Assembly: GCA_015228995.1 (NCBI GenBank)
Contig: JADGCM010000001.1
Span: 1 to 46,469, forward strand
Direction of reading: 5' to 3'
Length of the DNA: 46,469 bases
Source: Magnetococcales bacterium
GTDB lineage: Bacteria; Pseudomonadota; Magnetococcia; Magnetococcales; JADGCH01
In this document: piece by piece, positions 7,890-25,600 of the stretch
How positions within the stretch are numbered: position 1 is the stretch's first letter
How the letters are laid out: the number at the start of each line of letters is the position of its first letter
Program-made: the position numbers and the translations under genes
Notes under the pieces: generated by a model
What the model was told of the DNA's origin: nothing
The model's input: only the letters and a program-made list of their open reading frames with translations
Databases searched by the model: none

Positions 7890-7893
7890 TGGT

Positions 7894-8739
7894 ATGACCG
7901 CCACCCCCCTCACTCAAATCTGTGTGATCCTAGACCGGCCTGCCCATGCTGGCAATGTCGGTGCGGCGGCGCGGGCCATGAAGAACATGGGGCTTAGTCA
8001 GCTGCGGCTGGTGGCGCCGCGCCAGTTTCCTCATCCAGATGCTCTGCATTTTGCTGTCGGGGCCAGTGACATTATTGAATCCGCCCAACAATTTGCAACG
8101 ATTTCCGATGCGGCGGCCGATCTGCATGTGTTGGTGGCCACGAGCAATCGTCCCCGTGGACAACGACAATTGGTGGTAACCCCACGGCAGCTGGGTGCAC
8201 AGATCGCCGGCTTGTTGTCTGTGCCAACACGACGTCTAGGATTGTTATTCGGTACCGAACGGACTGGCTTGGAGACAGTCGATGTCGAGCGGGCCGACAT
8301 TCTGTGCAACATTCCGACCTCTGACTATGGCTCCCTAAACCTAGCCCAGGCGGTGCTGATTGTCGCCTACGAGATTATGCTTGGGCTGTCGGTGGGGCAA
8401 TCTTTTGCCGCCAATCCTCTGGAGGGAGAGGATAAAGCCACCGTTGCCCAGATGGAGAGGCTGTTTCAACATCTAGAGCAGGTGTTGCTAGATATCGATT
8501 TTGTCCGGCCGGGGCAGCAACGGCATCTGATGGGTAGTCTCAAGGCTGTCTTACACCGCGCTGCTCTGGATCGGCGTGAGGTAGCTATTCTGCACGGCAT
8601 TTTAACGGAGGTCATCGCATCAAGGCAACGAGCGGTCGCACGTGGTGATACGCATGGAGGTATCCTTCCCCCTCACCCCCAAGCCCCCTCTCCCACATGT
8701 GGAGAGGGGGAGCATGATGATCAAGTTTCTTCCCAATGA
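7894..8739 (+). CDS. trmJ: SpoU/TrmH-class tRNA (cytidine/uridine-2'-O)-methyltransferase, TrmJ-like, with a repeat-derived C-terminal tail
   Basis: ILDRPAHAGNVGAAARAMKNMG, LLFGTERTGL, IPTSDYGSLNLAQAV motifs. The ATG at 7894 lies 4 nt after the lpxI stop; the ORF-track start at 7798 lies inside lpxI. The last ~25 aa (…LPPHPQAPSPTCGEGEHDD…) are encoded by a REP-like element. Confidence 0.85.
   Translation: MTATPLTQICVILDRPAHAGNVGAAARAMKNMGLSQLRLVAPRQFPHPDALHFAVGASDIIESAQQFATISDAAADLHVLVATSNRPRGQRQLVVTPRQLGAQIAGLLSVPTRRLGLLFGTERTGLETVDVERADILCNIPTSDYGSLNLAQAVLIVAYEIMLGLSVGQSFAANPLEGEDKATVAQMERLFQHLEQVLLDIDFVRPGQQRHLMGSLKAVLHRAALDRREVAILHGILTEVIASRQRAVARGDTHGGILPPHPQAPSPTCGEGEHDDQVSSQ
8668..8710. 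repeat. Truncated copy of the same REP-like element inside the 3' end of trmJ
   Basis: ccctcaccccc-aag-ccccctctcc-cacatgt-ggagaggggg. The left half matches the 41360 element and a 10-bp inner stem is retained. The outer right arm is absent. Confidence 0.65.
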
Positions 8740-9518
8740 GCATTGTCAGGTTATCTGTTGCAATTGATGACGCGGTGCTGGATACCCCGCTAGAACTTCC
8801 CGCATCCGCTAGGGCTGAGCTGGCTGATTGGCAAGTGACTCCGGGTGCAGTGGTCACAATACAGGATAGCCGAGGGCTGTTTTATCGGGCTCATTGGCAT
8901 CACGATGGTACCCATCTACGGCCATTCGAGCGACTGCCAGAAAATGTTGAACCGCGCTGGCCACGACGCCTGTTCCAGGCCATTCCCGACCAACAACGGA
9001 TGAGCTGGATTGTCCAAAAAGGAGTTGAACTGGGGGTGACCATGGTGCAGCCGTTACACACCGCGCATTCCAACCCATTTCCTGATGGGGAAGCCGGACG
9101 GCAACAGCTACGGACTTGGCGCAGGCTGGCCCTATCCGCAGCCAAACAGTGCCGCCGAGCAGTGATTCCAGAGATCCGGGCGCCGCTACCGTTGTCGCAA
9201 CTGTTAACAGAGTGGCGACAGTCATCTGATAACGTCAGGCGGCTTCGTGCTGACGTGCGTGGCCTACGCTGGCCGTTGTCGGACTGGACCAGACAATCTT
9301 TTCAGCAACCTATTGATCTGCTCATCGGACCAGAGGGGGGATGGAACGAGCAAGAACGGCAGCAGACCGATGCCAGCGGTGTGGTGGCCATTGCCTTAGG
9401 ACCACGCGTGCTGCGCACCGAGACGGCAGCAGTCGCTGCATTGACCATTCTGATGATGATGGATGACGTCACTCCGTCACAGCTATCAATACCGCCACTC
9501 TGCCTCAACCACAGTTAA
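8736..9518 (+). CDS. rsmE: 16S rRNA (uracil1498-N3)-methyltransferase RsmE
   Basis: RMSWIVQKGVELGV and LLIGPEGGWNEQE motifs typical of RsmE. ATGA overlap with trmJ. Confidence 0.85.
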   Translation: MSIVRLSVAIDDAVLDTPLELPASARAELADWQVTPGAVVTIQDSRGLFYRAHWHHDGTHLRPFERLPENVEPRWPRRLFQAIPDQQRMSWIVQKGVELGVTMVQPLHTAHSNPFPDGEAGRQQLRTWRRLALSAAKQCRRAVIPEIRAPLPLSQLLTEWRQSSDNVRRLRADVRGLRWPLSDWTRQSFQQPIDLLIGPEGGWNEQERQQTDASGVVAIALGPRVLRTETAAVAALTILMMMDDVTPSQLSIPPLCLNHS

Positions 9519-11786
9519 AGCAATCATGTTGACGATACGCCGCACCGTGGCAGTAGGCGTCAGGACATGTACCGGTCTGGCGGCACCCAGTAGGATTGGA
9601 CCAACGGTCAGATTATCGCCCGCAGCGATTTTAAGCAGGTTAAAGGCAATATTGGCCGCATCCAGGTTGGGCATGACCAGCAGATTGGCGCTGTTTTTTA
9701 GGCGAGATTCAGGCATGACACGGTGACGAATCTGTTCGTCCAACGCTGCATCGCCGTGCATTTCGCCATCTACCTCTAGTTGGGGAGCCCGTTCATTGAG
9801 TAGTCGTAACACTTCACGCATTTTGATGGAGGAGGGGCTCTCTTCGCTGCCAAACGAAGAGTGTGACAACAAGGCCACCCGCGGTGTGATACCGAAGCGA
9901 CGGATGACTCCACAAGCAAGCAAGGTGGTTTCGGCAAGCTGTTCGGCGCTCGGGTTGTAGGTCACATAAGTATCGGTGAGGAACAGCGTCCGTCCCGGCA
10001 GCATCAGCAGGTTCATGGCCGCATAATGGTTGACGTTAGCGGCGTAACCAATCACGTCAGCGACGTAATTACGGTGTAAGGTGTGGTGGTCGAGTGTGCC
10101 ACACACCAAGCCATCGGCATCTCCCAGACGCACCGCCATGGCCCCGATCAGCGTATTGTGGCGAAGCATTTCGCGCCTAGCATAATCGCTCGATACCCCT
10201 TTGCGTGCCATCAGATGGTAATACTCCCGCCAGTAACGATCAAAGCGGGGGTGGTGGTCCGGGTCAATGACTTCAAAGTCGACCCCTATTTCTAGCCGCA
10301 GGCCAGCTTGTTCGATCCGTTCGACAATGATGGCGGGGTGGCCAATCAAGATCGGTTGTGCCATCCTTTCATCGACGATCACCTGCACGGCTCGTAACAG
10401 CCGCTCATCTTCCCCTTCAGCCAGTACAATGCGCTTCGGCGCCCGTTTGGCTTGAGTGAAAATCGGCTTCATGATGATGCCGGAGTGATAAACAAACTCG
10501 TTTAGATGGTCGATATAGCGTTCAAAGTTGGCCAGCGGTCGAGTAGCCACCCCTGACTCCATGGCAGCACGTGCCACTGCGGGAGCAATTTTGACAATCA
10601 GACGCGGGTCAAACGGCCTTGGGATCAGGTATTCTGGACCGAAGCCGGTCAATGGTTCGCCGTAGACCTCTTGCACCACATCGGACATTTCGGCTTGGGC
10701 CAGCTCCACCAATGCTTGCACCGCCGCTAAATTCATGGCATCGGTGATGGTGGTGGCACCGACATCCAGGGCGCCGCGAAAGATAAAAGGGAAACAGAGC
10801 ACATTATTGACTTGATTGGGATAATCAGAGCGTCCCGTGGCGATCATGGCGTCAGAACGGACCGATTGTACCAGCTCAGGCATAATTTCCGGTGTCGGAT
10901 TGGCCAAAGCTAGCACCAGTGGTCGTGGTGCCATACTCGCCACCATAGCGCTGGTGACCACGCCACCAGCCGACAGGCCAAGGAACACATCGGCATCAAC
11001 CATGACCTCCGCCAAGGTACGGGCAGCGGTGGTTTGAGCATAACGAGATTTAATTTCATCCATGCCAACAGGGCGGCCAACGTAGACGACACCATCAATA
11101 TCAGTAACCCAGATCTGCGCCGGGGTTAGACCTACTTTGACCAATAAATCCAGGCAGGCCAACGCCGCCGCTCCAGCACCAGAGGTGACCAGTTTGATCT
11201 GTTGCAACGACTTACCAGCCAACTTGAGGCCATTGATAATGGCCGCCGCGACCACGATGGCCGTACCATGTTGATCATCATGAAAAACCGGTATCTTGAG
11301 CCGTTCACGCAACTTACGCTCGATATAGAAGCACTCTGGAGCCTTGATATCTTCCAGGTTGATACCGCCAAAGGTTGGTTCAAGAGCAGCAATGATGTCG
11401 ATCAGCCGGTCTGGATCGGTTTCAGCGATTTCAATATCGAAAACGTCAATGCCGGCAAAACGCTTAAACAGCACCGCTTTGCCCTCCATGACTGGCTTGG
11501 CTGCTAACGGTCCGATGGCTCCCAACCCGAGCACAGCACTACCGTTGGTGACCACACCAACCAAGTTAGCGCGTGCTGTTAGAGTGTTGACCTCAAGCGG
11601 ATCAACCACGATGGCTTCGCAGGCTGCTGCCACCCCTGGTGAGTAGGCCATCGATAGATCGTACTGATTGGTCAGCTGTTTGGTGGGCTGCACCGCGATC
11701 TTACCCGCCTTAGGTTGGCGGTGGTAATAAAGGGCGGCCTGACGCAGATCGACAGCGGGGCGAGATTTGGGGTCAGTGGCTACCAT
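9486..11786 (-). CDS. maeB: NADP-dependent malic enzyme (malic enzyme domain plus phosphotransacetylase-like C-terminal domain)
   Basis: 766 aa from the ATG at 11786 (MVATDPKS…). N-terminal malic-enzyme motifs ([32 protein letters not shown]) and a ~330-aa PTA-like C-terminal half. The 3' end overlaps the convergent rsmE by 33 nt. Confidence 0.92.
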
Positions 11787-12199
11787 AGTTTGGGTCTCAG
11801 GCTGCCACCCTGGAGCGAAGCGTTCCAAGTGCCCCCAGAACCCTCAGCACTGTCACAGTACGACCACTGCCCCTTCAGACTGTAGTCGCTGTCGGTAGGT
11901 GCCCAGGTCACCCTGCCCCAATAGTGGGTACCCAATTTCTTATCGTTGCAACGCTGTTCAGAAGTGGGTTGCAGCCAAGTGAGGTACAAGGCACCACTGG
12001 GAGTCATGTTACCAGAAAGGGTTCCATTAAACTTGGGGTAACTACCAGCGACGCTTCCATCTGGACTCACGTCAAGATAAACGGGGCCGAAGTCGGAACT
12101 CCAGCTGCTGCGCCCCGGGGCGACGTCGTCCGCTATAGCTACCCATGTAGCGATACCAAGCGGAACGCTGACCCATGCGATTACGCTCCATTTCATCAT
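11780..12199 (-). CDS. Hypothetical secreted Trp/Gly/Ser-rich protein (139 aa)
   Basis: Signal peptide MMKWSVIAWVSVPLGIATWVAIA. No family recognised. The stop overlaps the maeB start by 7 nt. Preceded by the 42-nt promoter-like repeat. Confidence 0.6.
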   Translation of the reverse strand: MMKWSVIAWVSVPLGIATWVAIADDVAPGRSSWSSDFGPVYLDVSPDGSVAGSYPKFNGTLSGNMTPSGALYLTWLQPTSEQRCNDKKLGTHYWGRVTWAPTDSDYSLKGQWSYCDSAEGSGGTWNASLQGGSLRPKLW

Positions 12200-12270
12200 A
12201 GTTCATCCGTATAAATTATGGGACCAAATTTTAAGGCAACAAGCCCGTGTACAGCCCTATCAATGCCGCT

Positions 12271-12312
12271 ATCATGACAACAAATTACAACCGATGCAAC
12301 ACCTTATCAATA
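12271..12312 (-). promoter_or_regulatory. Copy A of a 42-nt repeated promoter-like element upstream of the secreted Trp-rich protein gene
   Basis: 39/42 identical to 26407-26448. On the minus strand it reads TTGATA (12310-12305), 17 nt, TAATTT (12287-12282), followed by GTTGTCATGAT. Confidence 0.5.
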
Positions 12313-12355
12313 CCAATTCTTAAGTCAACGTACCCTAGCGATTAACAATATAGGG

Positions 12356-13294
12356 CTATCGTCGAGAAAAATAGGTAGTGGCAATCTGCTGATGTAGCTG
12401 CCCTAAAGCGAGTTGCAGATCGTCCATGAATTTACTCAAACCGTGCTGCATGAGCAGTGATAAATCACTCTCTTCTATCATCTGTTTGAGCTGTTCTACA
12501 TGCTCAAGGGGGTGAGTGCTGTTTACCATTGTTGTGAGAGCCAAGGCAATTTCATGCATGCAGTAGTAAAAAGTACGCGGGAACAGACGATCACGCAGCA
12601 GAAACGACAGGACGTCAATGTCAGTAATGCGTGGGTTGATTTGGCGCCGATACATCTGTTCCCCAGAAACACAACGCAATAGGTTGAGCCACTGAATCTG
12701 GGCAAACGGAAACGGTCCATCCGAAGTATGGAGTGCCAGGTAGCTTGATCGAACATCAAGGATACGGGTAGTCATATCTGCCCTTTCCAAATGCTGACCA
12801 ATACGGAAGAAATCAAAGGCCGTTCCACGTGATAAGGTACCAGTTAATAGCCCAATCAGCTCCTGACATTTACGGATGACAACACGCAGAAAGCGGTCCC
12901 AGTGGCCAGTTTCAATACCATTGTCGGCGTATTCGCGTATGTACAGGTAGAGCTGGTTAAGGCTTTCCCAGAACTCACGAGGAAATATGTCGCGTATGGT
13001 GCGTAGGTTATTGCGCGCATAGGTAATGGAGCTGAGTAAGGATGAATGATTGTCAGGTTGGCTGATAAGGAACGCGAGCACAGACGATTCATTACTCTGC
13101 TGACATAGAGAGTGGAATAGCTCACTATTACCGGTAATGGTAACCAGCTGTTCCCAGCCAAAATGCGGATGGGCACGACAGATAGGTAGATCAAGAAGCA
13201 TCGTTTTGGTAACGCTAATCAATCGAGCACCATTCTCAACCCGTTCCAAGTTACGTCCCATCCAGTAAATATTTTCAGCAACGCGCGATAGCAT
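12356..13294 (-). CDS. Alpha-E domain protein (DUF403 family)
   Basis: N-terminal LSRVAENIYWMGRNLERVENGARL signature of the alpha-E superfamily. All-helical. Start lies 2 nt after the stop of the upstream ATP-grasp gene. Confidence 0.88.
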   Translation of the reverse strand: MLSRVAENIYWMGRNLERVENGARLISVTKTMLLDLPICRAHPHFGWEQLVTITGNSELFHSLCQQSNESSVLAFLISQPDNHSSLLSSITYARNNLRTIRDIFPREFWESLNQLYLYIREYADNGIETGHWDRFLRVVIRKCQELIGLLTGTLSRGTAFDFFRIGQHLERADMTTRILDVRSSYLALHTSDGPFPFAQIQWLNLLRCVSGEQMYRRQINPRITDIDVLSFLLRDRLFPRTFYYCMHEIALALTTMVNSTHPLEHVEQLKQMIEESDLSLLMQHGLSKFMDDLQLALGQLHQQIATTYFSRR

Positions 13295-13296
13295 GA

Positions 13297-14739
13297 CTAG
13301 TCCTCCACAATCCAGGTGTCTTTACTTCCTCCACCTTGAGATGAGTTGACCACAAGCGATCCTTTGCGTAGGGCTACCCGTGTCAACCCGCCTGCTGTGA
13401 CGTATGAATGGCGACCTTGAAGGATGAATGGACGTAGGTCAACATGGCGAGGTTGGACACCCTCATCGGTCAAAGTCGGTACCGTTGACAGCGCAATTGT
13501 TGGTTGGGCGATGTAGTTGCGAGGATTATTCCGGATGCACCAAGCCATTTTTTCACGTTCTTCTGTAGTTGCGTAGGGACCGATCATCATGCCGTAACCG
13601 CCCGATTCATTGGCTGGCTTGACGACCAGTTGGTCAAGATGTTCCAATACGTACTGCCGGTCGTTGGCGTCAAGACATTTCCAGGTTTGGACATTGGGCA
13701 ACATAATCTCTTCTCCGAGATAGTAGCGAATCACCTGTGGAATATAGGCATAGACTACTTTATCGTCCGCTATCCCGGCTCCTGGGGCATTGACCAATGC
13801 CACACGGTGGTTGCGCCAAGCCCGTATTAATCCTGGTACACCTAAACAAGAGTCGGAGTGAAATACCTCTGGATCTAGAAACAGGTCATCAACACGGCGG
13901 TAAATGACATCAACCCGTTTCGGGCCAGCAATGGTCTTCATATAGACACAGTCGTCATCGCCAACCATCAGGTCGCTGCCCTCGACCAGCTCAATGCCCA
14001 TGCGTTGGGCCAGATAGAGATGTTCAAAATAGGCAGAATTATAAATGCCAGGCGTCAACAACACCACTTGTGGGTGGTCATGAGGGCGTGGGGTGAGCGA
14101 CGCCAACATATCATATAGTTGCGAAGGATAGTCATCAACAGGAACGATGTTATGGGTATCAAATAGTTCTGGAAAAACTCTTTTGGTTACCAGGCGGTTT
14201 TCCAGCATATAGGAGACGCCAGATGGCACGCGCAAATTGTCTTCCAATACGTGCAATACCCCGTGCTGGTCCCGTATCAGATCACTACCGCAGATGTGAG
14301 CCCATACCCCCCAGGCCAATTTCATACCCACACATTGGGGACGAAAATTTTTCGAGTCAGCCAGTAGTTCAGCTGGAAAGACCTTGTCGCGGATGATGCG
14401 CTGTGATCCATACAAGTCACCAATGAACATGTTAATGGCTGTCATGCGTTGAATCAGACCTGCCTGAGTGTGTTGCCACTCCGATTTGGCTAACAGGCGC
14501 GGAATAATATCGAAAGGCCAAACACGGTCAATATTGTCACCATCGGAATAAACCGTAAAAGTAATTCCAAGATCGATAATGGTATTGTTGGCGTCCTGTT
14601 GGCGTTGTTGCAGTGACTGTTCACCCAACTCAGATAGATAATGATGCAAGGCTGACGTACTTGGACGTGCCAAGCAGTCCGAATTGATCATCTCATCGAA
14701 AGCTGTTGTACGCTGATAACGGGTCCAATCAATAGTCAT
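13297..14739 (-). CDS. Circularly permuted ATP-grasp type 2 protein (DUF404/DUF407 family amidoligase)
   Basis: 480 aa. Its sequence pattern parallels the N-terminal half of the 18408-20933 protein (e.g. VDVIYRRVDD / VDVVVRLIDD, ALVNAPGAGIADDK / AVVNPPGAAILENQ). Start chosen at the ATG at 14739 because GAGGAGGA lies 7 nt upstream; the alternative ATG at 14760 adds 7 aa. Confidence 0.88.
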   Translation of the reverse strand: MTIDWTRYQRTTAFDEMINSDCLARPSTSALHHYLSELGEQSLQQRQQDANNTIIDLGITFTVYSDGDNIDRVWPFDIIPRLLAKSEWQHTQAGLIQRMTAINMFIGDLYGSQRIIRDKVFPAELLADSKNFRPQCVGMKLAWGVWAHICGSDLIRDQHGVLHVLEDNLRVPSGVSYMLENRLVTKRVFPELFDTHNIVPVDDYPSQLYDMLASLTPRPHDHPQVVLLTPGIYNSAYFEHLYLAQRMGIELVEGSDLMVGDDDCVYMKTIAGPKRVDVIYRRVDDLFLDPEVFHSDSCLGVPGLIRAWRNHRVALVNAPGAGIADDKVVYAYIPQVIRYYLGEEIMLPNVQTWKCLDANDRQYVLEHLDQLVVKPANESGGYGMMIGPYATTEEREKMAWCIRNNPRNYIAQPTIALSTVPTLTDEGVQPRHVDLRPFILQGRHSYVTAGGLTRVALRKGSLVVNSSQGGGSKDTWIVED

Positions 14740-15053
14740 GGTACGATCCTCCTCATCCATGTCATTTACCGTCTACATATATGATGATAAAGCAATGATC
14801 GCGCCACTACGCTATTGCATTGTTGATAGAGATCTTTTGAGCTGCTTGTGACTGTAAAAATGGCCATTATGTATAAATAATAGGCACCTCGTTTATGACA
14901 ATGAACATAAAATAAGCACATCATCACTGTTAGAACGCGTAAAACAGCCTGTGGACTCTGCTTGCGTGGTTGGCGCGTCTTTTGTTGTAGTGTTTTTGGT
15001 AATGATCGTGCGATAGGCACATCTATTCCTAAAATCTGACCTTGGAGCCCCCC
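14740..15053. promoter_or_regulatory. Divergent A/T-rich control region between the two ATP-grasp/transglutaminase operons
   Basis: About 310 bp with no long ORF, visibly A/T-rich, flanked by outward-facing genes that each have strong SD sequences. Confidence 0.5.
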
Positions 15054-18000
15054 ATGACCATACGTGTTGCCATACGTCATCAGACCCATTATCAATATGA
15101 CCGGGCGACGCTGCTGTTGCCCCACGTCTTTCGGCTGCGTCCAGCGGCTCATTGCCGCACGCCGATTCGAAGCTACACGCTGCGAATCACGCCTGAAAAC
15201 CATTTCTTGAACTGGCAGCAAGATCCATTCGGTAACTTCCTGGCTCGCGTGGTTTTTCAAGACAGGACGCGCAGTATGCACATTGATGTTGAGGTGATCG
15301 CCGACATGACGGTGATTAATCCATTCGATTTCTTTGTCGAGGAGTCGGCCGAATTCTACCCCTTCTGCTACGACACTGGGGAAAAACAGTCGTTACAACC
15401 CTATTTGGAGATTGATGATACGGGTCCGTTAGTGCATCAGTGGTTGGCCGATGTGTCACGTCAGCGGCAAAAAACGGTGGGCTTTTTGGTAGCGCTGAAC
15501 CAGCATTTATGGCGATCAATCCGTTATACTATCCGTTTAGAACCTGGCGTGCAGTCCTGCGAAGAGACGCTCAACAAGCGGAGTGGTTCATGTCGTGATA
15601 CGGCTTGGTTACTGGTACAGATCATGCGCCATCTCGGCTTGGCGTCTCGGTTTGTTTCAGGTTATTTGGTGCAACTTAAGCCGGATATAGCCTCTCTCGA
15701 CGGACCATCAGGACCAGTAAGTGATTTTACCGATCTACATGCTTGGGCTGAGGTTTATGTGCCAGGTGCCGGTTGGATTGGGTTAGATCCAACCTCTGGT
15801 CTGTTTGCTGGTGAGGGACATATTCCTCTGGCTTGTACACCTCATTATCGTGACGCTGCTCCAATTATCGGTGATGTTGAAGCGTGTGAGAGCACCTTCT
15901 CTTTTGATAACCAAGTCGTGCGTATTCTAGAAACTCCACGCGTTACCAAACCATACAGAGATGAGCAATGGGCAGATATTCAGGCATTGGGTCGTCAGGT
16001 AGATGAGCAATTATTACAACAAGATGTACGTCTCACCATGGGTGGAGAGCCTACCTTTGTTGCTATTGATCACCCAGATGACCCAGAGTGGAACTTTACT
16101 GCCGACAGCCCCAAAAAACGGCAACTGGCTGGCGATTTATTGCGCAGGCTACAACGTTGTTTTGCCCCCGGTGGCTTACTTCACTATGGCCAAGGTAAAT
16201 GGTACCCAGGCGAGCCGTTACCACGTTGGCGTCTAAGTTGTTTTTGGCGTCGAGACGGCCAACCGCTCTGGCATGACCCGGCATTATTGGCTATTGAGGA
16301 CCAGTTATCCCAGTACGATATTGACCATGCTAGGTGTTTTATCGATAGGCTTGCTACAGCCTTAGGTATCGAGAACCAGCATGTTTTGACCAGCTACGAA
16401 GATCCTTTTTATCATGTTTGGCAAGAACAGCAATTGCCAGACAATATTGATCCCTTGGCGTTAGATCTGACCGATGCATCGGAGCGGCAGCGGCTGGCGC
16501 GCGTTTTGGAGCAAGGGCTTAATACGCCAGCTGGTTTTGTGTTGCCATTGCGATGGCATGAACGTCGTCGGTGTTGGTGCAGCAGCCGTTGGCCATTACG
16601 ACGAGGGCAGCTATTCCTATTGCCAGGCGATTCACCCATGGGATTGCGGTTGCCAATCGATTCGTTGCCTATCGAATCAGCAACGATTATTCACACAGCC
16701 CTTTGTGTTGAGCCTCGTCAGGGTCGGTTGCATTTATTCATGCCGCCAATAGAGCTGTTGGAACAGTGGTCGGCGCTGGTGGCCGTTATTGAGACAATAG
16801 CAGCTGAGCTACAACTGCCTGTTGTATTGGAAGGTTATGATCCGCCACAAGATGAACGGCTGCAACGTCTGTTAGTGACACCAGATCCAGGTGTCATTGA
16901 GGTCAATATCCATCCAGCTGCATCCTGGCAAGAGCTAGAAAATATCACCGTTCTGCTCTATCAAGAGGCACGGTTAGCTCGACTGGCCACTGAGAAATTC
17001 ATGCTTGATGGTCGCCACAGCGGTACCGGCGGAGGTAACCATGTCACCATCGGTGGCCCCACTCCAGTGGATAGCCCGATGCTACGTCGTCCTGACCTAT
17101 TACGCAGCCTCATCACTTACTGGCAGCACCATCCAGGACTTTCTTACCTCTTTTCTGGGCTGTTTATCGGCCCTACTAGCCAGGCTCCACGCATCGATGA
17201 AGCGCGCATGGAGGCGCTATACGAGTTGGAAATAGCTTTTCAACAAATGCCAACCGGTGAAGTGACAACACCTTGGCTGGTTGATCGGTTGTTGCGTCAC
17301 TTGTTAGTTGATTTGACTGGTAATACCCATCGTGCAGAGTTTTGTATCGATAAACTTTATTCTCCTGATGGTCCATCGGGTCGTTTAGGACTGGTGGAGT
17401 TGCGTGCTTTTGAAATGCCCCCTCATGCTCACATGAGTTTGGTGCAGATGTTGTTATTGCGTGGATTGATTGCTTGGTTTTGGCAACAACCCTACCATCA
17501 CCGATTGGTACGTTGGGGTACCGAGTTGCATGACCGGTTTATGCTGCCTTATTACGTGGTGCATGATGTACGTGCCGTATTCGCCGATCTGCGCCGTGCC
17601 GGATTCAATTTTCAGGACAGTTGGCTTGATCCATTTTTGGAATTTCGTTTTCCGCGTTACGGAGTGGTGCGTCTTGATGAAATCGAGTTGGAGTTGCGTA
17701 TGGCCATTGAGCCATGGCATGTGTTAGGGGAAGAGGTGACTCGTGCCGGTACCGCCCGTTTTGTTGATTCGTCTTTGGAGCGGGTACAGGTGCTCTGTTC
17801 TGGTTTGACGGAAGGGCGGTATGTGTTGGTCTGTAATGGCCGCCGTGTGCCCTTGCGTGACACATCGCGCCACGGCCAAGCGGTGACTGGGGTGCGTTAC
17901 CGGGCCTGGAAGCCAGCTTCGGCTCTTCACCCGACTATTGGGGTGCATACGCCACTGGTATTTGATGTAATCGACACATGGAACGGTCACTCTATCGGTG

Positions 18001-18275
18001 GATGCACCTATAATGTTTCTCATCCTGGTGGCCATAGTTATCAACAATTTCCTATCAATAGTTATGAGGCTGAGGCCCGTCGCACCAACCGGTTTCAGGA
18101 GTTTGGTCATACCCCTGGGGTTCTGATGCCTCTACCAGAGATCGTTCGTTTGGGTCGCTTCTACCCCAATGGCCAGCCACCACAGCCGATGGAACCGCCG
18201 CAGGAAGAGCCTTCAGAGGAATATCCACATACGCTTGATCTGCGATGTGCTAACCGTCATGGCTGGACCGACTGA
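15054..18275 (+). CDS. Large transglutaminase-family protein: Bact_transglu_N-like region, transglutaminase core, and DUF2126 (glutamine-synthetase-like putative amidoligase) region
   Basis: 1073 aa. N-terminal IRHQTHYQYDRA (typical Bact_transglu_N start). Cys-His-Asp core GSCRDTAWLL … DLHAWAEVYVPGAGWIGLDPTSG. Long C-terminal region of the kind found fused to this core (DUF2126). GGAG lies 8 nt before the ATG at 15054. Confidence 0.85.
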   Translation: MTIRVAIRHQTHYQYDRATLLLPHVFRLRPAAHCRTPIRSYTLRITPENHFLNWQQDPFGNFLARVVFQDRTRSMHIDVEVIADMTVINPFDFFVEESAEFYPFCYDTGEKQSLQPYLEIDDTGPLVHQWLADVSRQRQKTVGFLVALNQHLWRSIRYTIRLEPGVQSCEETLNKRSGSCRDTAWLLVQIMRHLGLASRFVSGYLVQLKPDIASLDGPSGPVSDFTDLHAWAEVYVPGAGWIGLDPTSGLFAGEGHIPLACTPHYRDAAPIIGDVEACESTFSFDNQVVRILETPRVTKPYRDEQWADIQALGRQVDEQLLQQDVRLTMGGEPTFVAIDHPDDPEWNFTADSPKKRQLAGDLLRRLQRCFAPGGLLHYGQGKWYPGEPLPRWRLSCFWRRDGQPLWHDPALLAIEDQLSQYDIDHARCFIDRLATALGIENQHVLTSYEDPFYHVWQEQQLPDNIDPLALDLTDASERQRLARVLEQGLNTPAGFVLPLRWHERRRCWCSSRWPLRRGQLFLLPGDSPMGLRLPIDSLPIESATIIHTALCVEPRQGRLHLFMPPIELLEQWSALVAVIETIAAELQLPVVLEGYDPPQDERLQRLLVTPDPGVIEVNIHPAASWQELENITVLLYQEARLARLATEKFMLDGRHSGTGGGNHVTIGGPTPVDSPMLRRPDLLRSLITYWQHHPGLSYLFSGLFIGPTSQAPRIDEARMEALYELEIAFQQMPTGEVTTPWLVDRLLRHLLVDLTGNTHRAEFCIDKLYSPDGPSGRLGLVELRAFEMPPHAHMSLVQMLLLRGLIAWFWQQPYHHRLVRWGTELHDRFMLPYYVVHDVRAVFADLRRAGFNFQDSWLDPFLEFRFPRYGVVRLDEIELELRMAIEPWHVLGEEVTRAGTARFVDSSLERVQVLCSGLTEGRYVLVCNGRRVPLRDTSRHGQAVTGVRYRAWKPASALHPTIGVHTPLVFDVIDTWNGHSIGGCTYNVSHPGGHSYQQFPINSYEAEARRTNRFQEFGHTPGVLMPLPEIVRLGRFYPNGQPPQPMEPPQEEPSEEYPHTLDLRCANRHGWTD

Positions 18276-18297
18276 CAAAGCCAAGCACATTGACCTT

Positions 18298-18407
18298 TCG
18301 ATATATTTTCGGTAACGTAGCACCGTCGATATCTGAGTAACTGGCGAAGATTCGATAATCAAGTTTTGGAATGGGAGTGCTGTTTTTCTTAAAAAGGATG
18401 TCGATAT
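18298..18407 (+). promoter_or_regulatory. Cluster of four TCGATA(T/A) motifs in the intergenic region before the fused ATP-grasp/alpha-E gene
   Basis: TCGATAT at 18298, 18326 and 18401, and TCGATAA at 18352. The last copy abuts the TTG start at 18408. Confidence 0.4.
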
Positions 18408-20933
18408 TTGACCAAGGAGCAGTTTTTTTACTACCGTCCCCCAGATGGATATGACGAATTCTTCACTTCAGATGGTACTCCACGAGATCATCTAGGCCCA
18501 ATTTTCAGCCGTATGAGTGATTGGGGACTCTCCCACATGGGACAGTTGCGCGATAAAGCCAAACGACTCCTGTTGGAAAATGGTGTTGCTTATAACGTTT
18601 ATCACGATCACCAAAGCGTGATACGTACCTGGGACCTCGATATATGGCCACTGGTGATTGCCGAAGCAGAGTGGTTGCAGTTGGAGCGGGGGCTAAAGCA
18701 GCGTTATCGCTTACTGGAGCGGTTGTTTGCTGATTTGTATGGTACCCAGGATGTTATCCGTACTGGCTTGTTGCCAGCTGAGTTGATTTTTGCCGATGCG
18801 GCTTTTTCGCGTCCATGCTATCGTCTTCCCCTGGCAGTGCAGCAAGCGCTGCCATGGTATTCAGTAGATTTAGCGCGCAACACAGATGGCCGCTTCTTGG
18901 TGTTGGGGGACCATTTCCAAAGGCCGACTGGTCCTGGTTATGCCCTGGAAAATCGCCAGATCTTTGCTAGGTTACTGCGTAATGTTTTGAATGAACACCA
19001 AGTAAGACTATTAAGGCCATTCTTTGCGACGTTGCGAACCAATCTAACGGGATCGGCTTGTCAGCCGCGTGAGGATCCGCAAACGGTTTTGTTAACCTCT
19101 GGGCCACAGGACGCACTTTACTTTGAGCATACCTTCTTAGCCAACTATCTTGGTTTGACACTGGTACAGGGAGAGGATCTGGCTACGCGTTCTGGCCGCG
19201 TCTGTTTGAAGACACTGGATGGACTCCACACAGTTGATGTCGTTGTACGCCTGATTGATGATCGATTGTGTGACCCATTGGAGCTGCAAGAAAACTCCTG
19301 TGTTGGTGTCGCCGGCCTACTACAAGCGATCCGTGGTCGGCGTGTCGCCGTTGTCAATCCTCCCGGGGCTGCCATACTGGAAAATCAGGGACTATTGGCT
19401 TGGTTGCCACAACTGGCGCGTCACTTTCTTGGAGAGGAATTGTTGCTCGCGTCCACACCTACTTGGTGGTGTGGCGATCGTGACCATCTTGCCTATACAT
19501 TGGACCATCTCAACACCCTCATTATCAAATCATTAGGCTGCGTGCGCTCTTCTCCTCCCGTATTTGGTGATCAGCTATCGGCAACGGAGCTGTTGGCGAT
19601 ACGGCAGCGCATTCTGGCACAGCCTGCGTCTTTTATCGCACAAGAACGCATTACACCGTCGACCATGCCGGTTATGACAGATCACCACTTGGTTCCAGGC
19701 CATGTGCTTTTGCGCACCTTTTTGACTGCTGGTAGTGCTGGCACAGAAGTCATGCCTGGGGGATTAGCGGCTGTATCAACCCGTTCAGCACAGGTACCAT
19801 TTTTTGATAATTATGGTGGTATCACCAAAGACGTTTGGGTGCTTTCTTCATCACCCGTCGCACGTGGAAATAGGCAATCTTCCGGTCCTTTATTGCAGCC
19901 TTCTATTTTTACCGGCGAACTTTCCAGTCGGGTGGCGGAAAATCTGTTTTGGCTTGGGCGTTATGCCGTGCGCGTTGAAAATGCGTTACGATTGCTACGT
20001 ACAATCTTACTATTACCGCCGGAAGAGAGGGATACGGATAGTCATTTGATGCCGCGGCGAGCAGTGCGTACTTTGTACCGGGCGGCGACCTCATTGACAT
20101 TAGCGTCTCCAAATTTTAAGGAAGGGGAATCCGAGCCATATTGCGTAGATCCAGAGTCTGATATACGGCGTATGATATTGTCGTCAGACGACAATGGTAG
20201 CATTAGTACTACTGTTAAGACATTGATTCAGACCGCATACCGTGTACGTGACCGATTGTCCAGCGATACTTGGCGTGTCATTAACCGGATCCATGATATC
20301 TTATTACACCTAGAGGGATTACATCACCTTAATGATACGGTAGATGATATTGAGTCCCTGTTAACTTCATTGACGGCATTTACTGGCCTATCTATGGAGA
20401 ATATGACGCGTGGTATCGGTTGGCATTTTCTTGGCTTGGGGCGGCGTTTGGAGCGATCTCTTTTCACGATTGATCTACTCCACACCACCTTGGTACATTG
20501 CGCCGATCCCGATGAGGAGCAGGTGTTATTGGAGGCATTACTAAACATCACTGATAGTATTATTACTTATAGACGGCGTTATCGCAGCCATCTCGCCATG
20601 AAACCAGCACTCGATCTGATTCTACAGGATGAGTCCAACCCACGTAGCTTATCTTTTCAGTTGGTCGAACTGCAGCATCATATTGACCAGCTACCCAGAT
20701 TGCAACCGATGCCCGTCTTTCGTACTCCAGCAGGACGGACTATCCTGGAGGTGGTCAGCCTATTGCGGCTCTCTGATACCGATCTGTTGACACTGACAGA
20801 TGACACAAATGGTCGACCCAACTTGGAGGATTTACTGACACGTATGAAGCAGTTATTGCCGCTTCTATCAGCAGAACTCTCTCATAACTACTTCCAACAC
20901 GCTTTGCCAGTGACTCGACAGAGTAGGTTTTAG
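18408..20933 (+). CDS. Fusion protein: circularly permuted ATP-grasp amidoligase (N-terminal half) plus alpha-E domain (C-terminal half)
   Basis: 841 aa. The N-terminal ~480 aa are paralogous to the 13297-14739 product. The C-terminal part begins LSSRVAENLFWLGRYAVRVENALRLL (alpha-E signature). The TTG start is the only in-frame start upstream of conserved N-terminal sequence (YDEFF…). Confidence 0.85.
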   Translation: MTKEQFFYYRPPDGYDEFFTSDGTPRDHLGPIFSRMSDWGLSHMGQLRDKAKRLLLENGVAYNVYHDHQSVIRTWDLDIWPLVIAEAEWLQLERGLKQRYRLLERLFADLYGTQDVIRTGLLPAELIFADAAFSRPCYRLPLAVQQALPWYSVDLARNTDGRFLVLGDHFQRPTGPGYALENRQIFARLLRNVLNEHQVRLLRPFFATLRTNLTGSACQPREDPQTVLLTSGPQDALYFEHTFLANYLGLTLVQGEDLATRSGRVCLKTLDGLHTVDVVVRLIDDRLCDPLELQENSCVGVAGLLQAIRGRRVAVVNPPGAAILENQGLLAWLPQLARHFLGEELLLASTPTWWCGDRDHLAYTLDHLNTLIIKSLGCVRSSPPVFGDQLSATELLAIRQRILAQPASFIAQERITPSTMPVMTDHHLVPGHVLLRTFLTAGSAGTEVMPGGLAAVSTRSAQVPFFDNYGGITKDVWVLSSSPVARGNRQSSGPLLQPSIFTGELSSRVAENLFWLGRYAVRVENALRLLRTILLLPPEERDTDSHLMPRRAVRTLYRAATSLTLASPNFKEGESEPYCVDPESDIRRMILSSDDNGSISTTVKTLIQTAYRVRDRLSSDTWRVINRIHDILLHLEGLHHLNDTVDDIESLLTSLTAFTGLSMENMTRGIGWHFLGLGRRLERSLFTIDLLHTTLVHCADPDEEQVLLEALLNITDSIITYRRRYRSHLAMKPALDLILQDESNPRSLSFQLVELQHHIDQLPRLQPMPVFRTPAGRTILEVVSLLRLSDTDLLTLTDDTNGRPNLEDLLTRMKQLLPLLSAELSHNYFQHALPVTRQSRF

Positions 20934-20944
20934 CTAGGTGAAAT

Positions 20945-21823
20945 ATGCGCTACCGGATTGAGCACATGACCCGTTATCAGTACAGCGATGTTGTTACTGT
21001 CTGTCACAATTTTGCTCATTTAGTTCCATGTTCTACTAACAATCAAGATGTTATACAACGTACCCTACACGTAACACCTGCGCCGGCTGTGATGTATGAG
21101 GCCTACGACTATTTCAATAATTGTACCCATTATTTTGAGATTTTGGAACCGCATCAGCAATTGGAGGTTTTAGCGAGCAGTGAAGTAGTTGTTTTACCCC
21201 GTACGACATTGTCGTGGCCTACCATTTACTATTGCTGGGAGCACGTGCGCGATCTATTACACCGGTCGGACGAGCCAGAAATTTGCTGTAATCGGCAATT
21301 CATGCTTGATTCGTCGTTGATTCGGCGCAGTGATCAGCTTGTGCAATTTGCTTCTGGCTCATTTTTGGCGGGGCGGCCGCTATTGGAGGCGGTTAGCGAT
21401 CTGATGCAGCGCATTTACCGCGAGTTCACTTATCGTGCCTCTGTCACAACGATCACAACGCCATTAGAAGAGGTCATGAAACATCGTCAGGGTGTGTGTC
21501 AGGATTTTGCTCACGTGGCAATTGGTGCTCTGCGTGCTATTGGTTTAGCGGCTCGGTATGTGAGTGGTTATCTAGAGACATCGCCGCCACCGGGTAAACC
21601 GCGTTTAGTGGGGGCTGACGCTTCACACGCTTGGTTTGCCGTATTTGTGCCCGGGCAGGGTTGGATAGATTTTGATCCGACCAATAACCTATTGCCGCAG
21701 GAGAGACACATTACGCTGGCCACAGGACGTGACTATGCCGATGTGGCGCCACTCAAAGGAGTCATCTTGGGCGGTGGTCAGGAGACACTATATGTGTCAG
21801 TGGACGTCGCACCACTGGGGTAG
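20945..21823 (+). CDS. Transglutaminase-family protein (Bact_transglu_N plus transglutaminase core)
   Basis: MRYRIEHMTRYQYS N-terminus. Catalytic motifs RQGVCQDFAHV, DASHAWFAVFVPGQGWIDFDPTN. Confidence 0.88.
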   Translation: MRYRIEHMTRYQYSDVVTVCHNFAHLVPCSTNNQDVIQRTLHVTPAPAVMYEAYDYFNNCTHYFEILEPHQQLEVLASSEVVVLPRTTLSWPTIYYCWEHVRDLLHRSDEPEICCNRQFMLDSSLIRRSDQLVQFASGSFLAGRPLLEAVSDLMQRIYREFTYRASVTTITTPLEEVMKHRQGVCQDFAHVAIGALRAIGLAARYVSGYLETSPPPGKPRLVGADASHAWFAVFVPGQGWIDFDPTNNLLPQERHITLATGRDYADVAPLKGVILGGGQETLYVSVDVAPLG

Positions 21824-21890
21824 GCAGTCACAAAAAAATTACGAATAAGCTACCTGGGCAGTTACCTTAAAACGGGACATTCTGAACGAG

Positions 21891-22661
21891 TCAGCGCCAG
21901 TTGTTGCGCAATTGACGCAAGGCGGCAAATACCGCTGCTCCACTCTGGCCAGCTCTGTCGAGGTACTGAGCCATGTTGGTGGTATGACAACGTAGGAATG
22001 GGTTGATCTGTTTTTCCTGCTCCAAGCGAACGGGCAGGGTCGGTTGCCTCTGATGTACCAGGGTGTTGGCGTGCTGGTAGAACTGTTTCAAGCCTTGATG
22101 ATCGGGTTCTAAGTGGAGGGCAAACTTCAAATTAATCAGTGTGTATTCATGCCCGGCAAATAGACGCCAATTCCCTGGCAGAGCCATCAGTCGTTGCAAC
22201 GAAGCCCACATCTGATCGGCGCTTCCTTCAAAAAGACGCCCACAGCCACAAGAAAAGAGCGTATCGCCGCTGAAGAGAGCATCTTCTGTGTGGTAGACAA
22301 CGTGACCCAATGTGTGTCCGGGAGTCTCCAACACCGTAACGTCTTGATCACCCAGCCGCAATTTATCGCCGTCTACCACTGCATGATCAAGGGGTGGTAG
22401 GCGATGGGCATCCGCTGCGGCTCCTATGACCTTTGCTTGGTAGCGTTGTCGCAACAACTCGACGCCGTCGATATGATCGTTATGGTGATGGGTGATGAGA
22501 ATATGAGATAAACTGACGCCATAGCCATCCAAAAATGCAATAACCGCCTCCGCCTCGCCCGGATCGACGGCAGCCATTTTTCCTGGTAGGGTAGGAAACA
22601 GCCAGACGTAATTATCCTGGTGTACTAAAACTGGAATGACCACAACGCCTTGTTGGGACAT
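21891..22661 (-). CDS. gloB: Hydroxyacylglutathione hydrolase (glyoxalase II, metallo-beta-lactamase fold)
   Basis: ITHHHNDHIDG (HxHxDH), TPGHTLGHV, CGCGRLFEG motifs. About 255 aa, as is typical for GloB. Confidence 0.9.
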   Translation of the reverse strand: MSQQGVVVIPVLVHQDNYVWLFPTLPGKMAAVDPGEAEAVIAFLDGYGVSLSHILITHHHNDHIDGVELLRQRYQAKVIGAAADAHRLPPLDHAVVDGDKLRLGDQDVTVLETPGHTLGHVVYHTEDALFSGDTLFSCGCGRLFEGSADQMWASLQRLMALPGNWRLFAGHEYTLINLKFALHLEPDHQGLKQFYQHANTLVHQRQPTLPVRLEQEKQINPFLRCHTTNMAQYLDRAGQSGAAVFAALRQLRNNWR

Positions 22662-22677
22662 ATCGCACTCCTCACGG

Positions 22678-25600
22678 TTACACTATCTCGCAGCATTCTT
22701 CACCCCGTTTTCCAGATCCTGGATGAAGATAGGCGGTCAGTGCTTCTTGAATAGGAATAGATGCCGTTTGCAAATCAGCCAACTGTTGCTGTACTCTCCC
22801 CCACGACCGCTGCCGCACCGCCTCATGTAATGTCGCCGTGCATTTTTTCATTTCTGGGAAGAGAACATTCATGACAGAGCCGTGGAGAACATGGGACGTG
22901 GCCCGAACCTGTTCGTAGTCTGCCTCGCGCAGCCCGCGTTCCATCGTGCGTATTAACTCGGGTAGTTGATCGGTGAGGAGTTGGACAACTTGCTGCAAAT
23001 CTTCCTCCTCTAGCCCAGTCGATTGTAAAATAGCGATGACATCCAGCTGGTTGCTACGAGCTGGTTCGACTGGTTCCGGGTGTAGGCTGGCTGTTGTGGT
23101 GGCAACAGAAAAGTATCGGTCTAGCATGAGCCGTAAGTCATTGATGAAAACCGGTTTAGAGAGAAAATCACTCATGCCCGAGGCCTCTCCGGCCTGCCGA
23201 CTCATCTGGGTAATATCAGCGGTAAGGGCGATAATAGGGATGGGTGCGCGCCCCTGCTGCTGCTCCCACTTTCGGATCAGGGAGACGGCCTGATAGCCGT
23301 CCATGACCGGCATTTGACAGTCCATAAAAATGAGGTCGAAGCTATTTTGCTGAAACTGTTCCACAGCCTGTTGGCCGTTACAAGCCGTCAGACAGCGATC
23401 GCGGCTACATCCTACCTTGGCAAGCATTCCAAGTACGACTGTCAGGTTGGCTTCCTGATCATCAACGACGAGAATGGAGGCAGAAGCGTACGTTGGTTGT
23501 GGGGTGTGGGCCAATGGCATTGCTATCGTGGGTTGTACCGCATGATCATTACGTGGCTGTAGTAGGGTACAGATCTTGTTGTGGAGTTGATCTTCACTGA
23601 AGGGTTTCCTCAGACATAGGGTATTACCAGGAAGTTCCGCCGCTTGGTCGAGTCCTTGATCTAATCGATCTATAAGGAGCAAAAAACATAGTTCTCGTCC
23701 AATAGCGCGCAATTGCGCCAACCCTTGTAATTTATCCTCACCCGGCCACTGATTGATAATTACCAACCGGTAAGGGGTACCTCGATTGGCAGCATCTGCC
23801 AGCATCGAACAGGCAGACTGCAACTCATAAGCATCATTGTAAATAACATTCCAGGTTTCGAGAGCGTCATGGAGCATGGCTGATTGTAAACCAAGACTGC
23901 CCACAATCAAGGCATGCGTGCCACTCAAGCCACTTTGAGGAGGGGGTACCACTAGTTGATCTTGTTCCAGCAACTGAATAGTGAAATGGAAAATAGAACC
24001 TGAATCTGCAAATGGATTGGCATCAACACCGATGCTACCGTTCATGAGCTGTATCAGGCGTTGGCAAATTGTCAATCCCAGGCCGGTACCGCCATACTGG
24101 CGCGTTGTGGAAGTGTTGGCCTGGACGAAACGCTCAAAAATCTGTTCTCGATCATTGACTGGGATACCAATCCCAGTGTCTCGGACTTCAAATAAAAACT
24201 CAATCCATTGACCTTCGCGACTTACGGGACCGCCATGAAACTCTACAGTGCCCCCTCTAGGGGTGAACTTGATGGCATTGTTGATCAAATTGATGAATAT
24301 CTGACGCAGACGATTCGCATCGCCACACACGGATACAGGGACCTTACTTGGAAAAAATGAGGTTAATTCAATATTTTTTGCGTGTGCAAGTGGGGCCATA
24401 TTCATGGCAATGTCGTCTAACAGGGTACGCAGATTAAAAGGAGCACTCTCTAATTTGAGTTGATCGGCTTCAATCTTTGAGTAGTCTAGGACATCATTAA
24501 TTAAATAAAGCAACATCTTTCCAGAATTTAATGCCAGCTGCACTTGCTCGCGATAAGATTGTTGTAAATCGGAATCTTCGAGCAGCTCAAGTATGCCGAG
24601 GACCACATTGATAGGAGTGCGAATTTCATGACTCATAATGGCCAGAAAATTACTTTTAGCCTCAGTGGCCTGCTCGGCTTGTTCTTTGGCATGGCGCAAG
24701 GCATCTTCCATTTGTTTACGCTCAGTGATATCGGTGGCAATGCCGCAGACAGCGTAGGGCCGACCGCTGTCATCCCGTAGTGGGAACTTGACAGAGATGT
24801 AAATATGCTCACCATCGTTCTGCGGCACGATCTCGTCAATTTGGGTAGGCGTCTCAGCCGACAATGCAAGACGATCATTAGCTTGTAATGTGGCAGCTAT
24901 CGTAGATGGGAAGATGTCATAATCTGTTTTACCCAGGATATCCTCATTGGTAATGCGAAATAACGCTTCGTATTGATGGTTGATGAACAGATAACGTCCT
25001 TGCAAGTCTTTCATAAAAATGACGGACGAGGTGTTGTTGAGGATGTCTCGGAGCTGTTGTTCACTGGCTTCTAGGGCACGCTCCATCTGTTTTTGTTTGG
25101 TAACATCCCGGAAAGCAACGACTACTCCATTCACCACTCCAGACTTAAAGATGGGTGAGGCGGTTACGGATACAGGAAAACAGCTTCCATCTCGACGCCA
25201 AAACCATTCATCCTGCGAAGTCATGACGCTGCTCCGATTTAATACCTCGTATATGGAACAGGCAGAGGGGGGGTAGGGGGAGCCATCGCTATATGAATGA
25301 TGGAATAGGGCATGGGCAGCCTGTCCCATCATCTCCTCTTCTTGCCACCCCAGTAGTGTCAATGCGGTGGGATTGGTGAACGTGATACGCCCCTGCCGAT
25401 CAATGACGTAGAGACCCTCGGCGAGGGTGGCAGCAATCTCTCGTAAACGGTGGTAAGATTCCTGGGCTTGTGCTGTGCTGCGTCTATTCTCAGCTTGTAA
25501 GGCCGTCACCACCAGGCTGATGATGGTGTGCGTTACCATGTAAACCCATAAAACCAATAAATTATATTCACCTCCGAGATGAAAGGGGTCATTGCCAAGT

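Follow-up and report, generated by a model that had tools for sequence, protein, structure and literature searches.

Positions 12,356 to 21,823 of contig JADGCM010000001.1, from an uncultured Magnetococcales bacterium (assembly GCA_015228995.1), carry two divergent operons that encode circularly permuted ATP-grasp ligases, Alpha-E proteins and transglutaminase-fold (TGase) enzymes. The whole stretch of 46,469 nucleotides that was analyzed is called the window here. We found that the five genes are one copy of a widespread, predicted cytoplasmic enzyme system and form a single recurrent unit, whose order and orientation vary between genomes, and not two independent modules. By analogy with homologues whose regulation has been measured, the system is probably induced by nitrogen limitation and forms and cleaves amide bonds. 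We give a probability of about 0.5 to the reading that it ligates and cleaves amide bonds of a small metabolite, peptide-like or of the gamma-glutamyl type, in nitrogen salvage or redistribution. The features of the locus, with protein lengths in amino acids (aa) and open reading frames as ORFs, are as follows.

12356-13294, minus strand: stand-alone Alpha-E protein, 312 aa, second gene of the minus operon
13297-14739 (ORF 13297-14760), minus strand: circularly permuted ATP-grasp ligase, 480 aa, first gene of the minus operon (the small ATP-grasp)
14740-15053: divergent control region of 314 bp with 42% GC, shared by and lying between the two operons
15054-18275 (ORF 15042-18275), plus strand: TGase-DUF2126 protein, 1073 aa, first gene of the plus operon
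18408-20933, plus strand: fused ATP-grasp/Alpha-E protein, 841 aa, TTG start, second gene of the plus operon
20945-21823, plus strand: stand-alone small TGase, 292 aa, third gene of the plus operon

A recurrent five-gene unit

The gene neighborhood was surveyed at 80 loci around TGase-DUF2126 homologues from named genomes, in which the five domain types were mapped by tblastn. These loci came from Alpha- to Zetaproteobacteria, Desulfobacterota, Bacteroidota, Verrucomicrobia, Acidobacteriota, Actinobacteria, Nitrospinota and Poribacteria, and gene order was counted in the 57 with full flanks. The TGase-DUF2126 gene was followed by the fused ATP-grasp/Alpha-E gene and then by the small TGase gene in 45 of the 57. 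The pair of small ATP-grasp and stand-alone Alpha-E genes adjoined the TGase-DUF2126 group in 27 loci and did so in four orientations: divergent upstream, as in the window (11 loci), co-directional upstream (six), co-directional downstream (six) and convergent (four). The closest homologues belong to Magnetococcales metagenome-assembled genomes, and the contig of the nearest relative bears magnetosome genes. Three Magnetococcales loci (L081-L083) keep the head-to-head form, with flanking genes that all differ. This recurrent adjacency, together with the head-to-head form amid unrelated flanks, indicates that the five genes have been inherited and have moved together.

An earlier reading, made from the DNA letters before any database search (the sequence-only reading), had described a double module with one half lacking its TGase. 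That description has to be replaced, since the five genes are one unit with the same inventory as BCAM1233-1237 of Burkholderia cenocepacia, and a minus operon without a TGase of its own is normal for the head-to-head arrangement.

Two further peptidase types accompany the system in some genomes. In 16 of 83 related loci, the cluster had as a neighbor the gene for Anbu, a proposed proteasome ancestor, and this gene often came immediately after the small ATP-grasp/Alpha-E pair, which makes the minus operon one of the type found in Anbu operons. The window itself has no Anbu homologue detectable by tblastn, as the sequence-only reading had stated; the query was validated against PDB 5LOY (E 3e-66). 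A gene coding for a Zn-ribbon and a Peptidase_Mx domain (PF15887) adjoined the system in seven of the 83 loci, at the following positions.

L036:6197-7210
L045:4428-5411
L047:6484-7536
L037:6048-7142
L067:15437-16585
L075:8782-9813
L078:8633-10099

In L036, L045 and L047, the Peptidase_Mx gene lies on the same strand after the ATP-grasp and Alpha-E genes, in the slot usually taken by the TGase, which suggests that one hydrolase was swapped for another. This apparent interchange, in which Anbu can be included, argues that the thiol enzymes act as hydrolases.

A search for a precursor or tag was made by clustering 1865 small ORFs in and around 84 clusters, and no conserved small ORF was found among them, which agrees with the lack of a precursor gene claimed for the window. 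The clusters of small ORFs that did form were antisense artefacts inside Anbu genes and Pseudomonas-specific neighbors only. One of the ORFs seen solely in Pseudomonas (L050, L051 and L060) is lysine- and glutamate-rich (MAKPNYSFAKRQRDLAKEQKKEEKLQRKK) and lies on the minus strand, about 100-300 nt downstream of the small TGase gene.

Domains, catalytic residues and gene starts

All five ORFs, their motifs and the Cys codons reported by the sequence-only reading were present, the starts chosen there were the best supported, and Pfam profile searches of the five proteins gave very strong matches to the assigned domains. NCBIfam gave no matches for the cluster proteins. The small ATP-grasp matched Pfam CP_ATPgrasp_2 (7e-160) and PDB 3N6X (E 7e-159). 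It was 49-66% identical to its counterparts in related loci, including those directly followed by Anbu, and it retains 40 of the 49 residues that are invariant across the fused family. The stand-alone Alpha-E protein matched Pfam Alpha-E (PF04168) over its full length (9.3e-80). It retains the motifs SRVAENxxWxGRxxER and GxxLER, as well as 13 of the 24 columns at which the fused family does not vary. Both domains were found in the fusion protein (CP_ATPgrasp_2, 8e-128; Alpha-E, 2e-69), which also matched 3N6X (E 6e-78). Identities between the two paralogous sets were 33% for the ATP-grasps, 23.5% for the Alpha-E proteins and 28% for the TGases; judged by these values, the two copies of each are to be read as old paralogues, as had been proposed for the ATP-grasp/Alpha-E units.

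The AlphaFold2 model of the fusion protein had a mean predicted local distance difference test score (pLDDT) of 82 and a predicted template modeling score (pTM) of 0.76. A Foldseek search of PDB with its ATP-grasp half placed 3N6X best (E 9e-32, target TM 0.87). The next matches, with E from 2e-8 to 1e-4, were glutathione and homoglutathione synthetases of eukaryotes, Cp1B of the E-64 pathway, and the synthetases of glutathionylspermidine and trypanothione. In this predicted structure, the characterized neighbors of the ATP-grasp half are thus all small-molecule carboxylate-amine ligases. The Alpha-E half had no informative Foldseek match in PDB (best E 0.13). An ATP-grasp of the same family from Yersinia bercovieri releases phosphate from ATP (PMC6376114).

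The TGase-DUF2126 protein carries Bact_transglu_N (7e-23), Transglut_core (6e-19) and DUF2126 (E=0) on a single chain. Its Cys180/His229/Asp245 triad (protein numbering; Cys codon TGT at 15591-15593) was invariant in 12 of 12 homologues, and the motif GGEPTF was invariant in the aligned DUF2126 homologues. The protein is 87% identical to its nearest Magnetococcales homologue and 60-67% identical to homologues across at least ten phyla; more than 8000 homologues were found. The small TGase matched Bact_transglu_N (3e-21), Transglut_core (9e-21) and PDB 3ISR (1.3e-14), and its Cys185/His228/Asp244 triad (Cys codon TGT at 21497-21499) was invariant in 58 of 58 orthologues. The intact triads noted earlier in both enzymes are therefore conserved throughout these homologues. 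A variable linker joins the N- and C-terminal parts of DUF2126, and about 70 of its residues are missing from the window protein and from its 87% relative (window 16596-16610, residues ~545-550 of the 15042 ORF, alignment columns 548-624), whereas all the other aligned homologues have them.

Translation of the small ATP-grasp most likely starts at ATG 14739, because AGGAGG lies 8 nt upstream, and that of TGase-DUF2126 starts at ATG 15054, given a GGAG ribosome-binding site and the fact that all aligned homologues begin there. In the fusion protein, the first 43 residues counted from TTG 18408 align with the conserved N-terminus of the homologues (YDE...RPHW), so the 798-aa database call, which omits 18408-18536, is 43 codons too short. 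The 803-aa call for the fusion protein of the nearest relative appears to be truncated at the N-terminus likewise. The ATP-grasp stop and the Alpha-E start of the minus operon are separated by 2 nt; the gaps in the plus operon are 132 nt (TGase-DUF2126 to fusion) and 11 nt (fusion to small TGase).

Sigma-54 motifs, nitrogen control and the surrounding genes

The control region had been described as about 310 bp and A/T-rich, which fits its measured 314 bp and 42% GC against 52.8% for the whole window. What had been missed was a regulatory handle, namely candidate sigma-54 promoters in the window and control by NtrC or nitrogen limitation in homologues. Two elements were located.

14791-14806, minus strand: TGGCGCGATCATTGCT, candidate sigma-54 (-24/-12) promoter for the minus operon, which points at the small ATP-grasp gene and precedes its ATG by about 50 nt
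14971-14986, plus strand: sigma-54-like element of the plus operon, TGGCGCGTCTTTTGTT, lying within the best-conserved intergenic block common to the window and L081

TGGCGCGATCATTGCT is the sole match with at most one mismatch to TGGCAC-N5-TTGCW on both strands of the 46-kb window. L081, the 87% relative, retains the GG and GC of this promoter, and L082 and L083 have TGGCACAATGGTTGCG at the equivalent place. The position homologous to TGGCGCGTCTTTTGTT reads TGGCGTCATTTTTGCC in L082, and in L070, from a member of the Comamonadaceae, the TGase-DUF2126 gene is preceded by TGGCGCGTCTTTTGCT.

A promoter census was made with GG and GC fixed and at most two mismatches, using the upstream regions of neighboring genes as controls. 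Sigma-54 motifs were present upstream of 22 of 79 TGase-DUF2126 genes and 16 of 40 small ATP-grasp genes, compared with 43 of 652 controls (Fisher p ~1e-7 and ~1e-8, respectively), that is, an enrichment of 4-6 times upstream of related operons. Scans for sigma-70 promoters and terminators did no better than on shuffled sequence, and an Rfam scan of 11.5-22.8 kb gave no matches. The control region also contains ATAGGCAC twice (14881-14888 and 15013-15020) and, between the two sigma-54-like elements, a block conserved with L081 (AACAGCCTGTGGACT, 14943-14957); each is a candidate activator binding site.

Published expression data point in the same direction: the family is under NtrC or nitrogen-limitation control wherever it has been measured. 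In B. cenocepacia H111, the contiguous genes I35_5080-5084 (BCAM1233-1237) were all reduced (-3.1 to -9.4) in an ntrC mutant under nitrogen limitation (PMC5491218 and its supplement), and I35_5080-83 are listed in the main text among the common sigma-54/NtrC targets (PMC5491218). In Pseudomonas putida, PP_2688 (circularly permuted ATP-grasp), PP_2687 (Alpha-E), PP_2686 (TGase) and PP_2685 (proteasome beta, which is Anbu) were 11-37-fold up under nitrogen limitation, and nitrogen limitation can be sensed with the promoter of PP_2688 (PMC7801951, PMC8050072, PMC3325844).

Housekeeping genes flank the cluster on the window (dxr, rseP, bamA, skp, rRNA methylases, malic enzyme, gloB, ftsY, queG, ychF and acs), and the locus is not a mobile island. 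The GC content is 0.46-0.52 at 12001-26000, which covers the cluster and the adjoining gloB and MASE1-PAS hybrid kinase genes, compared with 0.55-0.57 at 6001-12000. Directly downstream of the plus operon lies a gene for a GloB-type hydroxyacylglutathione hydrolase (21891-22661, minus strand) and, beyond it, one for a 1226-aa MASE1/PAS/HisKA/receiver/Hpt hybrid kinase (22678-26358, minus strand). A large PAS hybrid kinase gene is likewise found downstream of the plus operon in L081, but without gloB, and the association of the kinase with the cluster may be lineage-specific. The flanks of L082 and L083 are completely different from those of the window and L081 and hold defense-type genes, a Cas2-like ORF (L082:6839-7120) and an AIPR/AAA_21 pair (L082:17973-21083). 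Downstream of the Alpha-E gene in the window, a 139-aa ORF (11780-12199, minus strand) was rejected as a component of the system: its N-terminus (MMKWSVIAWVSVPLGIATWVAIA) resembles a signal peptide, it had no Pfam or PADLOC match, and L081 has no such ORF next to its cluster. It overlaps the longest reading of the malic-enzyme ORF.

Substrate, alternative readings and related systems

In the pathway that we propose, the two ATP-grasp ligases, each with its Alpha-E partner (one from a separate gene and one fused), would turn a carboxylate into an acyl phosphate and then form amide bonds of the peptide or gamma-glutamyl type. The bifunctional protein joins a Cys-His-Asp TGase-fold enzyme to DUF2126, a probable third ATP-dependent carboxylate-amine ligase, and the stand-alone Cys-His-Asp TGase-fold enzyme is a further component. 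The thiol enzymes would hydrolyze the same class of bond, as peptidases or amidases, possibly freeing ammonia or an amine. Both operons would be transcribed from their sigma-54-type promoters and induced, as in the homologues, by an NtrC-type activator when nitrogen is limiting, so that ligation and cleavage together would make up a nitrogen salvage or redistribution pathway. We infer which class of substrate is used, that the TGase domains serve as hydrolases and what the pathway is for. A small peptide-like or amino-acid-derived metabolite is more likely as substrate than a protein, on account of the structural relatives of the ligase, the lack of an encoded tag, the optional presence of Anbu and the company that these genes keep in NtrC regulons.

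Several observations weigh against this pathway. The label "GS-like" (glutamine synthetase-like) given to DUF2126 by the sequence-only reading stands as an annotation in Pfam and as a fold hint from a poor model, and it failed the sequence and profile tests. At E<=10, the DUF2126 region and three sub-regions of it matched only DUF2126 in Pfam, with no glutamine synthetase, GCS2, Amidoligase or Pup_ligase match; a profile search of PDB with the TGase-DUF2126 protein returned only TGases and no glutamine synthetase; and an alignment of 22 DUF2126 sequences, compared by hhalign with a glutamine synthetase sequence validated in Pfam, scored a probability of 2%. No glnA gene was found in the collected loci. 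The model of this protein, built from a 12-sequence alignment, was poor (pLDDT 53). Foldseek matched it to the transglutaminase-like protease 3ISR (E 5e-7) and, weakly (E 0.025-0.5), to the glutamine synthetases 8FBP (probability 0.97, E 0.025), 9N4X, 5DM3 and 2WGS, which were the only non-TGase matches of appreciable probability. The likeness of DUF2126 to glutamine synthetase is therefore an annotation-level claim, given the negative sequence and profile tests, and the model supports it weakly. Transglutaminase-fold enzymes usually act on proteins, and a peptide or protein substrate would suit them at least as well; the same can be said of the three peptidase kinds (TGase-like, Peptidase_Mx and Anbu) taken together. 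On the regulatory side, the plus-operon element TGGCGCGTCTTTTGTT has GT and not the canonical GC at -12, no activator gene or confirmed activator binding site was identified in the window, and the loci of the promoter census are not phylogenetically independent (many are from Pseudomonas), so that the p-values overstate the case. It is also not obviously adaptive to spend ATP on nitrogen-containing amides during nitrogen starvation. Finally, our literature searches found no substrate, product or phenotype for any member of the family, as had been stated before, and no defined simple reaction published for orthologous loci. The literature searched had no mention of DUF2126 by name, nor of PF14403, PF04168 or PF04174; the DUF2126 accession PF09899 was mentioned once, in a Mycobacterium leprae genomics paper, with no functional work on the family.

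The alternative that has to be weighed most closely is protein tagging and degradation of the pupylation kind. Here, the ligases would furnish proteins with a tag made without ribosomes (amino acids or a peptide) or with a gamma-glutamyl isopeptide, either building or attaching it, and the TGase-fold enzymes would deamidate or de-conjugate like Dop. The tagged proteins would be degraded, by Anbu where it is present, and their amino acids recycled under nitrogen starvation. A carboxylate-amine ligase combined with a deamidase or isopeptidase is the general logic of PafA and Dop, recycling fits the nitrogen-limitation induction of the homologues, and Anbu, whose identity is secure (E 3e-66 to solved structures), and two further peptidase types keep company with the genes. 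The papers on Anbu take up this hypothesis and credit Iyer et al. 2009 with it (PMC5666114, PMC6376114). The structure papers report that Anbu had no peptidase activity and that the operon proteins formed no stable complexes with one another, and they state the proposed roles (tagging, de-conjugation, degradation and ammonia production) as untested (PMC5666114, PMC6376114); a 2021 survey gives no function known for Anbu (PMC8665760). Against tagging stand these results and the absence of Anbu from the window and from about 80% of related loci, the lack of a conserved tag or small ORF in and around the 84 clusters and of any Pup_ligase match in the Pfam searches, and the small-molecule substrates of all characterized structural neighbors of the ligase. 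We regard tagging of this kind as possible but doubtful. Of the earlier description of the locus as a peptide-ligation or protein-tagging system, the tagging part is thus no better supported than a small-molecule or peptide substrate, as the ligase's structural neighbors are all small-molecule ligases. A novel form of protein marking, which would need no tag gene, is unlikely. In it, the five-gene set, with or without Anbu or a Zn peptidase, would mark proteins under nitrogen starvation: target proteins would receive amino acids or a short non-ribosomal peptide from the ATP-grasp/Alpha-E ligases, with the isopeptide link made by the GS-like domain and the mark edited or removed by the TGase-fold enzymes. 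If true, such marking would be a functional counterpart of pupylation and ubiquitylation across at least ten phyla, and it would give Anbu a substrate.

The remaining explanations agree less well with the conservation and regulation of the genes. A specialized peptide natural product, for which the ATP-grasp and GS-like ligases would take the place of a non-ribosomal peptide synthetase and the thiol enzymes would carry out maturation, would make use of three ligase-type domains plus trimming enzymes, and the E-64 ligase Cp1B (PDB 9CJN) is an ATP-grasp of the same fold. Identity of 60-67% in TGase-DUF2126 across at least ten phyla is nevertheless atypical for secondary metabolism, no conserved export, resistance or tailoring genes were found nearby, the chromosomal context is housekeeping and the homologues belong to the NtrC regulon, which makes this reading improbable. 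That two functionally unrelated modules came to lie back-to-back by chance in this genome is more improbable still: the small pair does occur apart from TGase-DUF2126 in about half of the fully flanked loci, and in P. putida it sits in a separate operon with TGase and Anbu, but its adjacency in 27 of 57 loci, in four orientations and several phyla, its retention in three Magnetococcales genomes with different flanks and the co-regulation of all five genes in B. cenocepacia speak against coincidence. An anti-phage or conflict system could be suspected from the movement of the cluster as a unit between contexts and from the Cas2-like and AIPR/AAA_21 neighbors in L082 and L083. None of the five proteins had a PADLOC match, however, and extreme sequence conservation, broad phyletic spread and nitrogen regulation of the homologues leave this explanation hardly credible.

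Whichever substrate is involved, the gene set is among the most conserved and widespread bacterial enzyme systems without an assigned function (TGase-DUF2126 is ~60% identical from Proteobacteria to Planctomycetota, Bacteroidota and Actinobacteria), and it is tied to Anbu. The link to sigma-54 and nitrogen limitation names a condition under which a product can be sought, and once the chemistry is solved in a tractable host, thousands of genomes could be annotated together; the window locus is no more tractable than the Burkholderia or Pseudomonas copies.

The pathway proposed here can be compared with several known systems. The Pup/PafA/Dop/proteasome system follows a similar logic: a carboxylate-amine ligase that uses ATP is combined with an amidase or isopeptidase, to which some relatives add a proteasome-family particle, and both systems are linked to nitrogen starvation. 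In contrast to it, the window cluster has no Pup-like gene and no Pup_ligase-family match, and its thiol enzymes have a different fold; the Pup system is at most an analogue of the cluster and not a fellow member. Glutathionylspermidine synthetase/amidase (GspSA) pairs a ligase with a cysteine amidase on the same amide bond. The ATP-grasp half of the window protein is structurally like GspSA and the glutathione synthetases (Foldseek E 2e-8 to 1e-4), although identity is only 11-14%. These enzymes have no Alpha-E partner, and the amidase of GspSA is of the CHAP type, whereas the candidate amidase of the window has the transglutaminase fold.

The neighborhood of circularly permuted ATP-grasp, Alpha-E and transglutaminase genes was reportedly described by Valas and Bourne in 2008 and by Iyer et al. 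in 2009. The window shows its components, with two ATP-grasps (PF14403/PF04174), Alpha-E domains adjacent or fused to them and two TGases with intact triads. This copy, from an uncultured lineage, is typical and adds nothing unique to a neighborhood described since 2008-2009. In Mycobacterium tuberculosis, we take Rv2566-Rv2567-Rv2569c to be the TGase-DUF2126 "long conserved protein", the fused ATP-grasp/Alpha-E protein and a TGase, and Rv2411c-Rv2409c is presumably a separate set of ATP-grasp, Alpha-E and TGase, located apart from the former. A 2026 preprint reports that Rv2411c and Rv2567 were expressed as candidates for GABA-trehalose (gamma-aminobutyric acid-trehalose) synthesis and that both were negative.

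The Anbu operons of P. putida (PP_2688-2685), Y. bercovieri and Pseudomonas aeruginosa (Valas and Bourne 2008, Fuchs 2017, Piasecka 2018) have the same type of ATP-grasp and Alpha-E pair as the minus operon of the window, which differs from them in having neither Anbu nor a TGase in that operon and in coupling the pair to the TGase-DUF2126 operon instead. In B. cenocepacia H111, I35_5080-5084 (BCAM1233-1237) comprise the same five components, matched by annotation names, and are contiguous and co-regulated. Their order is ATP-grasp, Alpha-E, TGase, TGase-DUF2126 and fusion, whereas the window has two divergent operons with the TGase last; dependence on NtrC and sigma-54 is experimental in B. 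cenocepacia and is predicted from the promoter motifs in the window.

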